A DNA stretch of 64,000 bases from contig OZ024743.1 in NCBI GenBank assembly GCA_964016885.1, positions 343,852,001-343,916,000 of the forward strand, read 5' to 3'. The position numbers and the translations under genes were made by a program. Source of the stretch: Eledone cirrhosa. Its lineage: Eukaryota. Positions 8,033-49,728 of this stretch are shown one piece after another; the first letter of the stretch is position 1; the number at the start of each line of letters is the position of its first letter. Below the pieces are notes generated by a model. That model was not told the DNA's origin. It worked only from the letters and a program-made list of their open reading frames with translations, and ran no database searches.

Positions 8033-8250
8033 TTATTAAAATAACAGATTAAAGTTTAAGCAAAGAATCGCTGCTTTCACCCTTAACGGCATCTTCAGAA
8101 GATCCCGTTAAGGGTGAAAGCAGAAATTCTTTGCTTAAACTTTAATCTGTTATTTTAATACATATTTGCTCTACGGTTCTTATATATTTGATATATATTT
8201 ATCCTTATCGAGCCCTCTTTGGATTTTAGTCTTCAAATTTATTATTATTA
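8033..8250. mobile_element. Fold-back PLE pLTR remnant in (TA)n, with hammerhead core at the symmetry axis
   Basis: ~60-bp arms 8033-8097 and 8098-8160 are near-perfect inverted repeats; minus strand reads CTGAAGA-TGCCGTTAAGGGT-GAAAGC. Confidence 0.6.
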
Positions 8251-8511
8251 CTATATATATATATATATATATATATATATATATATATATATATATATAT
8301 GGATTTTAAAAACAAAAATATAATCTATAATCTGGAAAAGGAAGAAGGAAAGGAAACAGAATAAATATAAAAATAGATAAACACATTCACACACACACAC
8401 ACACATATACACACACACACACACACACACACATATATATATATATATATATATATATATATATATATATACGATATTAACAAATGGAAACTAAATTTAT
8501 AAAACCATATT

Positions 8512-8576
8512 TATTTTATTATACATATTTCAAGGACACCACGTTAAATTATGGTGTGCTTTCATCAGACAAAATA
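8512..8576 (-). ncRNA. Type-I hammerhead ribozyme (family A)
   Basis: TATTTTGT-CTGATGA-AAGCACACCA..TGGTGTCCTT-GAAA-TATGTAT-A-ATAAAATA: all three helices and the conserved core are present. Confidence 0.8.
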
Positions 8577-10269
8577 CAATATAGATCAGTTTTATAAATA
8601 AATATTGACATACCCTTAAAAAATGCAACCATTACTGTTGGAAGCTTCCGGATAGTGGAGTTGTTTACTTATATTATTATTAGTATTGGATATTTTTATT
8701 TTTAAAATAAGCCGTTGGGTTACAGAGAAAGAAAAAGAAATATATGGATTTCTTAATGTATAGATCCCAATTTTTAATATATTGATCTCAATTTTTAAAT
8801 GTTTAACTAAACATCTATTCATATTTAAACAATGATTAATTTCTCATATTATATATGTATATTCCATTCATGATTATTAACATTTCTAATTTTATTTATT
8901 CATTTCATCTCAATTGTTAAGTTAACTCAACAAGATATGACTTAGTGTTTTCGTTCTCTCCCCTTCTCTCTGTCTCCTCTCTATCTCTATATCTTTCTCT
9001 CTCTGTTGTTTTGGTATCTCTCTCTCTTTTCTCTCTTTTTTCTTTTTTTGATGTAATTAAACTACCCTAAAATGTAGATGCTCCCAATCTATTGAATACA
9101 TTTTACGCTAGATAAACTTCTATACTAAATATAAGAGCATCTGTAGAACAACAGGGTCTCCTAAATCTTTTAAATGATTTCGGCTAAATAAGTCTTGTTG
9201 AATAATTTTGTTTTTTGTTTGCTCTTGATTCTGATTGCTTCTAATGAACTTGGCAATATATTGTCAGATAAATTGGAAGGGTTGATTTCTGTGGTTGATA
9301 TGGGGGGCATACTGTGTTTTTTAAGACCCTAGACACTCTAGGGAGTGATGAAAGTATTCTTAGCGTTTTGATATATTGATATCTGTTGTCTATTCTATAC
9401 ATGAACGATAATCATGTATGTGAGGGCAGGAATATTAATATTAATATATATTTTTATGTATGTGTATGTATGTATATATATATAGTAAAATCTTTTATAA
9501 CGCAAGGGAAATTTTTTTTCATGTGAAATAAGAAATTACAGAGCTGATCACGTATGTTCACGTGTCAACTAGAACTGTATAGTGTCAACTAGAACTTGAG
9601 ATGACCTTCTCTTTTTCTTTTTCTCTTTCTTTCTTTTTCCGGTAAGTACATATATACTTATGTATTTTGAAGTTTTATCTCAGGTTTTGGTATATAGACC
9701 TGAGAATTTTTAAACTAAACATATGGTCATTATTTTTCACACATTATATATCTATGTCTCATTCATGAATATTGATATTTACAGTATAATACCCAATTCA
9801 TATGAATTGATAATTCAAAATGATGGGACATAACGTAAAGTTGTAAATCTGTCATCCTTCTCTCTAGATATAGCTTTCTTCTCCTCCCTCTATACATGAT
9901 GTAATCTAAGTATCGCTGTATTTATCTCCGTCTCCTTAACACTATAACTAAATAAATAAATAAATAAATAAATAATTACAGTACTCCCTCCCTCCTAAAT
10001 CTCTCAATTTGTATGATGATTATTATTATTCATCTGTTACCTCAGCTGCCTCTCATTTTTCACCTCCTCACTATTTCTCTCTCCCATATCTCTCTCTATC
10101 TCTCTCTGTTTTCCTTTACATACATTTATTCCTTCTCTAGTCTTTCTTTCTAACTGTGCTTAACACTAAATATTTACAAACATTTCACTACCAAACCAAC
10201 TTTTTTAAATGGAAGTTGATCAATATTTTATGGTACGTCAAATTTATTTATAAAACTGCTTATATATTG

Positions 10270-10335
10270 TATTTTATCTGAAGAAGGCATGCCATATTTT
10301 TAATATGGTATCCCTGAAATATGTATAATGAAATA
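10270..10335 (+). ncRNA. Type-I hammerhead ribozyme (family A)
   Basis: TATTTTAT-CTGAAGA-AGGCATGCCATATT..AATATGGTATCCCT-GAAA-TATGTAT-A-ATGAAATA. Confidence 0.8.
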
Positions 10336-10479
10336 AATATGGTTTTATAAATATAGTTTCCATTTGTTTAATATCGTATATATATATATATATATATATA
10401 TATATATATATATATATATATATATATATATATACACATATACACATATACACAACACATACATATGCACAGAAATAAA

Positions 10480-11045
10480 TATCTATAAATAAAAAAGGTG
10501 GGTTTGTAAAGGGTAAGGTAGAAAGTAGAGGGGAATAAGGAAAATAAATAACATAGGAAAAAGTTTAAATATAAGGGGAGATAAGGGAGAAAAAGAATAT
10601 AAGAGTACAGAAAGTGAGTTCAGAGAGTAATAAAAATCGTAGTGGATGTAAGGCGTAGAGAGCAGAGAAGAAGTTCAAGGTGGTTGAGTCATCGTAAGAA
10701 TGTCAATCCAGTTACAGATCAGATGTGATTTCAGGTGAGGACAACATCTGAAGATTTCGGTCTTGGAGTTCAGGCAAGTTGAAGAGGCTTTCAAGTTTTG
10801 TAGAATCCTAAATTTTTCAGTGGTACACAAAGAACAATTCTTTGTGCCCCTTTGGTATTCCGTCGAATGGTCTAAAATAGACCAATCGATAGAGTACGGG
10901 ATGTTTTTATCCTTGAATTCCCACACCTTATTTGCGAGAGCCGTTGCTGTTCTTTTATCAGAGTGTTTAAAAGAAGCGACATGTGCATAAAACCTCGTTT
11001 TGAACCTGACCTGAGTCATGCCAACATATCGTTCAACATATCGTT
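10480..11045 (-). mobile_element. 5'-truncated PLE: GIY-YIG C-terminus (ORF 10675-11019) plus 3' UTR
   Basis: RYVGMTQVRFKTRFYAHVASFKH...TALA...WSIL...CSLCTTEK...LNSKTE...CPH. Confidence 0.85.
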
Positions 11046-11934
11046 CACCGAAAAATCGTTTTAAAGGAATCTTTGTTTGGTATCTGGGGGAACAAAGGAT
11101 ATAAGTGTACTACGTTTGCAACATATTATAATGTTATATGTGCATATATAACATATGATAATGTTATAGTTGTTTCTATACACAAAACAGCGTTAAATGG
11201 GGAGAAAGTGAATATATATATATATATATATATATATATATATATATATATATATATATATATATATATAAATTACACAAATATCATAGTTATGTTCAAA
11301 TCATTTAATTGCTGACAATTGTTTCTTCCAAACTTTCGTTAGGAGTCATTGAGCTATTTCCCTTACTGGTGATAAGGTAGTAATAAATTACCTTTCCTGT
11401 TTATAGTATATACATAACTATAAATAATATTATTATTATTATTATTATTATTATTATTATTATTATATATATATATAAATATATAAGGTATAAGAATAAA
11501 GGAACAAAGAATTAGTGTTGCATTATAACATTTAATAACATACGTTTCACCTATACACACACACACACACACACACACACACACACACACACACACACAC
11601 ACACACACACACACACACACACACACACACACACACACACACACACACACAATTAACGACATAATTATAAATACTCTTTCCTTGTGAATACTCTAACCAG
11701 AGACAGGATTGAATTGGCATCTATCTCCTTTGGGAAATATGCTGAAACTTCGATGTGAAAAAGGAAGTGGTATAAGCTATAATAATCTGGGATATACCTA
11801 TCCAGTCCGACAAAAGAATCTCAAAGCAAACCGACCAGGCAAAATGATGAAAGAGCAAGAATCTCTGTACTCAATCCCTTCTGACCAAAACACCACCCGG
11901 AAAGATGTCGAAAAGTTATCAAAGTTATCGACCT

Positions 11935-48079: not shown

Positions 48080-48457
48080 TATATATATATATATATATAT
48101 ATATATATATATGTAAATATACATATATATGTATTATATATCAATCAATCACTCAATCTCCCCCCCTCTCTCTCTCTCTCTCTCTCTCTCTATATATATA
48201 TATATATACATGTGTGTGTATGTATGAATGATGGTGACAATACTGGGGATTTCAATCGTTGGCAGAAGTCACACACGTACATGGTTCAAAGTTGAAAGAA
48301 ACAAGTCAGTATGTTATTCTGATTAAAATAAACTATCCATAATTGTGATTGATTTGATCTTTAATTAGTTTTGGTTTTATATTTATATTTAATCCGCAAT
48401 TATTAATTTTACACATAATGGTGATTTGGTGTTTCATTATTCATTATATTCAAATGT

Positions 48458-48675
48458 AGGGTGATGGATTGCCAGTATCGGTAGAGCGTCGGACATCATG
48501 CTTCGTGGCAGAGAGTTACGGCCCTTTATGATCTGAGTTCAAATCCCACCGAAGTTAGCTTTACCTTTCATCCTTACGGGGTCGATACAGTAAAGCACCA
48601 GTAATTCACTGGTTCGATTTAATCGATTCCCCAGCCCTACAAATTGCTGGCTCTGTGCCTAAAGTAGAAACAAGT
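48458..48675 (+). mobile_element. Family-1 SINE with 19-bp TSD ATTCATTATATT(C/T)AAATGT
   Basis: TSD at 48439-48457 and 48676-48694. Confidence 0.92.
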
Positions 48676-48696
48676 ATTCATTATATTTAAATGTGA

Positions 48697-48962
48697 AAGC
48701 AGTATAATCGAATGGTTAAGAAGTTCGTTTTGCAATCATCAGGTCCCGGGTTCGATCCCTTGTACACGTGTCCTTTATCATAGCCTCGGGCTGTCCCATG
48801 TATTGCGAGTGAAATTGTGAAGACAGAATCTGTTTGCAAAGGTTGGACAGTAATTCAAAGTACCAGCTTTGTCACATTCTATCATACTGAATCTCCCTGC
48901 GAATTATATTAAACTTGTTGATCGAACTAGAACACCCATCGTCGAAACCGACGGAGTTTCAT
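48697..48962 (+). mobile_element. tRNA-derived SINE, family 3 (degraded)
   Basis: TGGTTAAGAAGTTCG...GGTTCGATCCC head; tail CCCATCGTCGAAACCGACGGAG shared with 61835 (minus) and 25570 (minus). Confidence 0.75.
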
Positions 48963-49279
48963 TCTCTACTTCCATTCCATTCGTTGTATATAAAAATACA
49001 AAAAAACATATAATAATTTTACGAAAAATTAAGTTTTGTTAATTCCTTTTAGAAATATTCTCGCGAAAATAAAGATGTGCAAAACAAACAAACAAATAAA
49101 AAACAAAACAAAAAAAACAAAACAAAAAACAATGCATCCTCACAACAAAAACAAAACAAAACAACAATAACCATAAGAAAACAAAAAAATAAATAAGTTG
49201 AAAAATGCTATCCTTCTGGAAATACCAGTCTTCTTTAGGGGATTTAACCAATTTGTTTTGTAATATATTTTTATATATA

Positions 49280-49348
49280 TTGATGAAGGGCTTATGACCG
49301 AAACGTCTCACTTGTATTCCTGTGTTGTTGTTGTTTTTTTACTTTCCT
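49280..49348 (+). ncRNA. 5'-truncated minimal hammerhead / pLTR stub (family D)
   Basis: (T)TGATGA-AGGGCTTATGACC-GAAACGT-C between TA repeats. Confidence 0.5.
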
Positions 49349-49404
49349 ATATATATATATATATATATATATATATATATATATATATATATATATATAT
49401 ATAT

Positions 49405-49728
49405 GTAGATAAATCTAACAAAATATACGGTAGTGCCCAGTCCGCATGAAGAACTCAACAATTTAATGATAAAAATCATCGGAAAACCAAGTCAAGATAA
49501 ATTAATAAAAACAATGAAATAAAAACAAAGAACAAGTTCCTTGAGGACGGCATGTATATGTGAAGGTATGTATATTTCCTCTGATAATTTGTAATATTTT
49601 TACATAGATCTTAAACATGATATACATACCAACACACATATACATCCCAGAAACGATCGTTAAATGATGAATTTTTTAATATAAGGAACTTGTTCTTTGT
49701 TTTTATTTCATTGTTTTTATTAATTTAT
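49405..49728. mobile_element. ORF-less inverted family-B pLTR doublet in (TA)n, with long-helix-II hammerhead remnant (49541-49669)
   Basis: 49497-49542 is inverted at 49683-49728; homologous to 24453-24775. Confidence 0.8.

Follow-up and report, generated by a model that had tools for sequence, protein, structure and literature searches.

The window analysed here, a stretch of 64,000 nt of Eledone cirrhosa (OZ024743.1, positions 343,852,001-343,916,000; genome 3.0 Gb), contains insertions in which two copies of the pseudo-long terminal repeat (pLTR) of Penelope-like elements (PLEs) stand head to head, with the element ends pointing outward and a tail on one of the two arms. These doublets are real and an ordinary product of known PLE biology. 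We consider it probable that each arises from two staggered primings on one RNA, one from either strand of the cut target, with the ends of the two complementary DNAs (cDNAs) joined by microhomology. An inverted 5' copy with a one-sided tail is in print for PLEs (PMC8557442, PMC3846280 and PMC2377424, in their accessible parts), and the first of these papers calls its origin an open question in the part available to us. The layout itself is already published; the counts of the one-tail rule, of non-nested arms, of coupled arm lengths and of a cap-like G come from this analysis.

Layout and anatomy of the doublets

The original prediction had listed seven insertions in the window, and all of them lie where it had placed them, between (TA)n runs and with the element ends outward. 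The three pLTR families that it had proposed were found as A (subfamilies A1, A2 and A3; 23197-23535, 47690-48078 and 39762-40071), B (49405-49728 and 18535-24775) and C (8033-8251); families D and E also occur in the span. The two outer ends, which had been taken for equivalent 3' ends, do both point outward, but they are not equivalent. One arm carries a tail of ~90-135 nt, i. e. the sequence between the pLTR end and the start of the open reading frame (ORF), and the other arm stops at the pLTR end. The tail was one-sided in all five small units and in 18535-24775. The latter is not free of ORFs as had been assumed, with pieces coding for reverse transcriptase (RT) and a GIY-YIG endonuclease (EN) on its arms, and the second large insertion, 8470-10377, is no clean doublet but combines an A2 doublet with an arm from a different A subfamily. 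Two further insertions of the span, a small doublet at 49764-49966 and a full element with an inverted 5' pLTR at 15785-18473, were absent from the original list.

Genome matches to the pLTR end numbered 4,950 for family A, 3,149 for family B and 31,586 for family C. Orientation was tallied in the first 100 of the 4,950 family-A matches. Adjacent pairs within 10 kb were -+ in 34 cases, +- in 2, ++ in 1 and -- in 1; random expectation for adjacency is ~1%, and the excess of the tail-out orientation is far beyond chance. Direct neighbours thus made up 2 of the 38 close pairs. Exact-match pairs of families B and C within 1 kb were -+ in 8 of 8 cases each. From the same sample 60 of 63 family-A clusters were fetched for reading. 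An inverted partner end lay beside the matched end in 38 of the 60 loci, and in five more the partner was reduced to a tail piece or a few bases (L090, L094, L098, L118 and L138). One locus (L111) is a direct tandem with no partner in view; the rest were interrupted or poorly readable.

Inverted joints could in principle be fold-back artefacts of the assembly, an outcome that had been named as fatal to the layout and that we regard as hardly credible. Independent raw Illumina reads (restriction site-associated DNA), taken from three samples of a different study, contained strand-switch joints, each with a small number of read starts. Among the 14 joints listed, beside 65 further rows, 12 were present in all three runs, and the presence of one joint in several samples speaks for real loci. 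These figures come from a rerun on a non-inverted family-C reference; on the inverted window unit, most strand-switch joints mirror the duplication of the reference itself. Moreover, the arms have diverged and have received later insertions. The tail-out layout is real.

For the anatomy of the doublets, duplicates were removed from the family-A set and then three pairs were dropped (one duplicate, one in a family-B host, one complex). The orientation sample thereby comprised 41 doublets, 6 of which were too poorly resolved for lengths, leaving 35 with arm lengths and 70 arm ends. The tail, ~90 nt in family A, was on exactly one arm in 40 of the 41 doublets and in 89 of the 90 family-A doublets fetched altogether, and it stood left or right with equal frequency (20:20). 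In family E the same rule held for 27 of 29 ends with an inverted partner, each doublet being counted once per end. The sizes formed a continuum from 150 bp to 7 kb, with 22 of the 41 doublets at or below 500 bp. One tail-less arm (in L049) is one full unit long, counted from the first base of the tail.

Neither arm is regularly the shorter one. The tail-less arm was longer in 14 of the 35 doublets, the tailed arm in 13, and in 8 the two were within 10 nt of each other; over all resolved doublets the tail-less arm was longer in 27 of 58. In doublets with the longer tail-less arm the two arms are not nested in either direction, and two priming events are required. At the same time both arms come from one source. 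In 77 doublets with at least 60 nt in common, the arms differed at 56 of 12,756 nt, as compared with a median of 1-12% to other arms; the source was the same in 77 of 77, always of one subfamily, and 23 variants were common to both arms of one doublet and absent from every other sampled doublet. Arm lengths were coupled as well (both short 16, both long 13, mixed 6; n = 35, Fisher p 1.3e-4). At the joints the arms overlapped by 1-9 nt in 26 of 35 doublets and the others showed short templated duplications; in the window, the joint of 47690-48078 carries a short tandem duplication. Microhomology together with templated duplications is expected of theta-type end joining.

Identical arms with shared private variants and a one-sided tail would also follow if one cDNA folded back and was copied to a hairpin, which the endonuclease then resolved close to the end of the pLTR, so that one side alone kept the tail. 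Palindromic joints are common, and the accessible part of PMC8557442 ascribes the tail to EN-mediated resolution. However, a copied arm must lie inside the first one, which does not fit the longer tail-less arms counted above. In the window this route is contradicted by 23197-23535, 39762-40071, 49405-49728 and 18535-24775, and both arms of a doublet can end in a cap-like base (L271 and L283; see below). We regard fold-back as quite improbable in general. It is contradicted for the non-nested doublets and may hold for some nested ones.

Arm ends and probable priming on one RNA

The arm ends of family A were not evenly spread. Nineteen of the 70 fell at 170-200 nt, around a TCACT at -187, an initiator-like motif that is also named in a rotifer pLTR (PMC3846280, accessible part). 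Two window units end at this site: in 23197-23535 the tail-less arm begins at TCACT, with two untemplated G between the arms, and in 39762-40071 the tail-less arm stops at the A of the site (-187), with the arms overlapping by 2 nt. In two other units the break is at the predicted hammerhead, the tail-less arm of 49405-49728 beginning at its core and the joint of 8033-8251 falling within a hammerhead-like core. The hammerhead cut was considered as a general arm boundary and rejected; of 70 arm ends, no more than 4 lay at 40-100 nt, the two bins around the predicted cut near -50.

In family C 2,210 matches had a non-native base before the A of TTAGT, which was G in 53 of the first 100. Of 21 such G loci that were read, 18 join the inverted partner or a tail piece and 3 join flanking DNA, and native upstream sequence beyond the G was found in none of them. 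In about ten the partner arm was not the source of the G, and some antisense arms end in a matching extra C. Raw-read depth halves at the TTAGT site and two of the listed joints end there. A control two bases downstream gave 1,193 matches with A 52, T 25 and C 23 as the first base (scored by eye); this control is imperfect in that substitutions and truncations are mixed. Hot-spot joints of family A at the initiator A after a foreign base had G in 14 of 16 cases (by eye, and with a partner arm that is G-rich there). An untemplated 5' G is the accepted mark of a cap for LINE-1 and SVA (PMC4859970, accessible part). The ends of the short arms coincide with initiator-like sites, in most family C cases next to an untemplated G that resembles a copied cap, the start sites being inferred from DNA.

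A scheme that accommodates these observations would be the following. A dimeric RT-endonuclease would nick both strands of (TA)n; one nick would prime at the tail end of the RNA (+90 in family A) and the other at the pLTR end (0), and both cDNAs would be extended toward the 5' end of the RNA. If priming took place on the promoter-proximal pLTR copy, both would run off at the transcription start, with the cap copied as an extra base, giving ORF-less units of 200-400 bp. Priming on the downstream pLTR copy would instead give arms of kilobase length. The two free 3' ends would then pair over a few bases before fill-in, in the manner of theta-type end joining. The idea of the original prediction that both strands prime and that the two cDNAs are joined agrees with the non-nested arms and with the microhomology and templated insertions at the joints. 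Its further suggestion of a ribozyme-dimerised RNA pair found no support. By itself such a pair would give neither the single tail in 40 of 41 doublets nor coupled lengths, and few ends lie near the predicted hammerhead cut.

Biochemical work on PLEs is consistent with two-strand priming. In the in vitro retrotransposition of PAc (PMC11167929, accessible part), the PLE protein, modelled as a dimer, cuts and extends both strands and starts at two adjacent sites inside the RNA, which set the extent of the genomic tail; the reaction did without ribozyme cleavage, and ribozyme mutants were without effect on insertion. In that part of the study, however, the choice of start site was equal between the strands and the two sites were not linked to inverted arms, whereas the genome data presented here predict one site per strand per event. 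Further predictions from our counts are one RNA per event and run-off at the capped 5' end. With an in vitro PLE system in existence, this makes an open mechanistic question testable.

Alternatively two separate RNAs, usually from one source locus, could be used, one by each subunit of an asymmetric dimer or as a ribozyme-paired RNA dimer. Dimeric activity has been reported for short PLE hammerheads. Two RNAs would account equally for non-nested arms and microhomology joints, and joins of mixed source are known (8470-10377 and L082). Yet an extra rule would be needed for the single tail and the coupled lengths, no mixed-subfamily pair was found among the 77 comparable doublets despite several subfamilies being present, and the ribozyme-paired variant has against it the unaffected insertion of ribozyme mutants in vitro (PMC11167929, accessible part). 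We therefore take two RNAs to be rather unlikely.

Several observations nevertheless weigh against priming on one RNA as a general account. In families B and C, with 30 loci read each, most ends were without an inverted partner within 1.5 kb. Two loci, L139 and L209, violate the one-tail rule. A second cluster of arm ends in family A (11 of 70 at 125-150 nt) is without explanation, and the cap signal of this family is weak (T 56, G 22 and A 22 of 100). Some arms are longer than one unit together with the promoter (4,366 nt in L031), so that read-through or template jumps are required. Mixed joins such as 8470-10377 and L082, the latter seemingly a mixed-family doublet of a family A arm and an inverted family E-like arm at its positions 8300-8371 (by eye), are evidence of other routes. 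The counts of length and identity exclude eight doublets of poor resolution, which are possibly enriched for mixed-source cases, as are the three pairs dropped earlier. Finally, DNA does not distinguish one RNA from two RNAs of the same source locus, and the likeness of the inverted arms could also stem from gene conversion between them.

Other elements offer partial parallels. In the twin priming model of LINE-1 the two primings take place from the two target strands. LINE-1 copies share the inversion, small indels at the joint and an untemplated 5' G on full-length copies (PMC4859970, accessible part), but LINE-1 inverts its 5' part without duplicating the 3' end, whereas here the same pLTR end is present in both arms. 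Closer are the inverted 5'-truncated copies of EN+ PLEs, which in the accessible parts of PMC8557442, PMC3846280 and PMC2377424 have a 5' inverted copy, often a one-ended tail, microsatellite targets, a hammerhead in the pLTR and an initiator-like TCACT. The published copies are ORF-bearing and have tails of 30-40 nt, with no worked-out mechanism in those parts, as opposed to the 22 of 41 doublets under 500 bp and the longer tails reported here. A proposal of double priming on one RNA for PLEs was not found in the literature searched (most subscription and older Penelope papers lie outside it); the accessible parts of PMC2873906 and PMC13282606 contain nothing on double priming or on edited hairpins.

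It is possible, and we put it forward tentatively, that double priming is obligate for PLE integration. A dimer would load one RNA, each subunit would start cDNA synthesis from a different strand at one of two fixed, staggered sites, and host end joining would link the cDNA ends. Every insertion would then contain a hairpin from the outset, promoter run-off stubs in the tens of thousands would record capped starts, and hairpins in the transcripts of other elements would return to the genome A-to-I edited. This would be unlike any described retrotransposon.

Recurrent junctions and a passenger doublet

The small ORF-less units could themselves be a non-autonomous class of self-propagating hairpin elements, similar to retrozymes or to miniature inverted-repeat transposable elements (MITEs), as the original prediction had offered as its alternative. 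Recurrence of junctions speaks for this. The junction 35-mer of 8033-8251 occurs at 367 loci genome-wide (the window copy being one base off), and this unit is 96% identical to locus L024 over its length; in family A 176 joints fall within one short zone, with the same palindromic joint in 12 of the first 50, and one doublet is present at 16 places. Identical junctions do recur, but with either tail side and in several subfamilies. Among 30 loci with the family C joint the tail was on the right in 15, on the left in 13 and unclear in 2, and no arm mismatch was common to more than 2 of them; a uniform unit that masters had spread to unrelated sites, as for MITEs, was not seen in these loci. The commonest A joint is found in at least four subfamilies, no two of the 35 doublets have both breakpoints alike, and the junction at 23323-23361 was found once in the genome. 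The sizes are moreover continuous. The 30 and 17 loci read contained no clade of doublets that agreed in junction, arm mismatches and side of the tail while differing in their flanks. Recurrent junctions behave as hot spots and not as clones.

A comparison with non-LTR retrozymes leads to the same result. According to the accessible part of bioRxiv 10.64898/2026.07.22.740005 these are ORF-less, have a type I hammerhead and are related to PLE pLTRs. They are, however, defined as direct tandem arrays and thought to spread by circular RNA, whereas the units described here are head to head and would be formed at integration; of the 38 close pairs 2 were direct, and each of these belonged to a tandem with an ORF. 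We consider a self-propagating class very improbable. The small ORF-less units are likely by-products of autonomous elements, and such stubs risk being mislabelled as MITEs or retrozymes.

The one doublet that did spread travelled as cargo of family B. This family-A doublet (L192-L207, L172-L174 and L328-L332) shares its left flank in 16 of 16 copies, lies inside family B structures in all 7 regions mapped and sits in the 3' untranslated region (UTR) of a family B lineage. On the B-sense strand A-to-G changes were present at 225 of 653 and 281 of 715 positions of the paired arms, as compared with 5 of 528 in the tail and 0 of 432 in the loop; the copies share ancestry. Twenty-five edited sites are present in all 15 full copies and others vary among copies. 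Sorted by the 5' neighbour, the edited fractions were 18/38 for T, 15/29 for A, 3/11 for C and 2/9 for G, small numbers with a direction, against G, as for ADAR. This fits ADAR-type editing of a hairpin in the B transcript that was fixed by reverse transcription, as far as the DNA can tell. Doublets would then move again rarely, as passengers in the transcript of another element, with the hairpin A-to-I edited and written back to the genome. From the passenger doublet it would follow that hairpins of this kind are transcribed in this genome and, once edited, are copied back into it.

The A1 doublet 23197-23535 of the window is unedited and at the same position in another B copy. It sits in (TA)n of the family-B 3' UTR, and the other B arm has this site unoccupied, at 19578-19628. 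Hyperedited avian retroviruses are likewise described with an inverted repeat in which many A-to-G changes became fixed through reverse transcription (accessible part of PMC12925331); unlike there, the hairpin is here 3' UTR cargo of a host retrotransposon at 16 genomic places. Edited PLE hairpins in genomic DNA were not found in the literature searched, within the scope given above. The microsatellite of the family-B 3' UTR (23060-23676 and 19470-19700) is G-rich and C-poor on the sense strand, with for example 29 G and 1 C at 23582-23676, a composition that would result if (TA)n had been edited from A to G repeatedly.

Identity of the elements and further features

Judged by motifs and by tblastn among copies, the elements are Penelope-like with Hydra-clade motifs. 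Pieces of RT (YRDD) followed by EN are present in families A, B and D, in the layout of a single ORF with a C-terminal GIY-YIG. The ORFs carry YRDD, RW-, DKT, CxCX5C, CxxC and CxH motifs: RWI and DKT in P0002, RWR and DKT in the family A ORF, the CxCX5C linker with CxxC and CxH beside the conserved E and N in P0004, and the linker in P0001. Copies are flanked by (TA)n. The accessible part of PMC8557442 (section 11) describes for the Hydra clade the same RW-motif, DKT, CxCX5C, CxxC and CxH around the EN end, (TA)n targets and hammerheads; units of that clade are generally under 3 kb, whereas the family A unit is 3.8 kb. Locus L031 is a near-complete family A copy with the ORF in two frames, in the order pLTR, tail, ORF, 3' UTR, pLTR, tail, and with an inverted tail-less arm at its 5' side. 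Pfam gave no PLE match at E 0.01 for 14 ORFs.

Hammerhead core motifs with stem pairing are predicted from sequence in the A and B pLTRs, and a variant core in C. Among 150 of 332 rows the Rfam search of the window gave microsatellite-driven microRNA noise alone and no hammerhead family. In the hammerhead-like core of family C (e. g. 8096-8102) position 4 is A instead of the customary U, and the beginning of stem I seems to coincide with the inferred start site.

Coordinates of the doublets and related PLE copies in the window
Feature	Positions	Strand	Arms and tails
Family C doublet	8033-8251		tail-less arm ~8033-8096 (-); tailed arm ~8096-8159 (+); tail 8160-8251
Composite	8471-10377		A2 arm 8471-8739 (-); A2 arm 8736-9049 (+); arm of other A subfamily 9054-10377 (+); A2 doublet broken at 9049; tail absent at both outer ends
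Family D PLE	15785-18473	-	frameshifted RT-EN ORF; tail and direct pLTR piece; inverted tail-less pLTR 18251-18473 at 5' side
Large family B doublet	18535-24775		tail-less arm 18535-21841 (-), with RT and GIY-YIG pieces
Large family B doublet, tailed arm	~21842-24775	+	GIY-YIG end, 3' UTR, pLTR, ~135-nt tail
Family A1 doublet	23197-23535		tail 23197-23286 (-); short tailed arm 23287-23342 (-); tail-less arm 23347-23534 (+)
Family A3 doublet	39762-40071		tail-less arm 39762-39948 (-); tailed arm 39947-39981 (+); tail 39982-40071
Family A2 doublet	47690-48078		tail ~47690-47780 (-); arm to ~47913 (-); tail-less arm ~47913-48078 (+)
Family B doublet	49405-49728		tail ~49405-49496 (-); tailed arm ~46 nt; tail-less arm 49542-49728 (+)
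Family E doublet (sixth small doublet)	49764-49966		left arm alone tailed

The family D copy shows the textbook layout of a PLE. A lone family-E tail piece lies at 46557-46655, two further PLE-type GIY-YIG fragments were found at 10735-11028 and 13848-14330, and more palindromes adjoin simple repeats at 58860-59292 and 47131-47240. In the large family B doublet the right arm alone contains the A1 doublet and a SINE-like insert (short interspersed element). This dispersed repeat (22783-22969 and about ten other places) has one copy that breaks only this arm; a further copy breaks an arm in locus L187. Long open frames run across related tandem repeats with a period of ~107 bp at 27112-36070 and 52398-54310, with no useful Pfam match.

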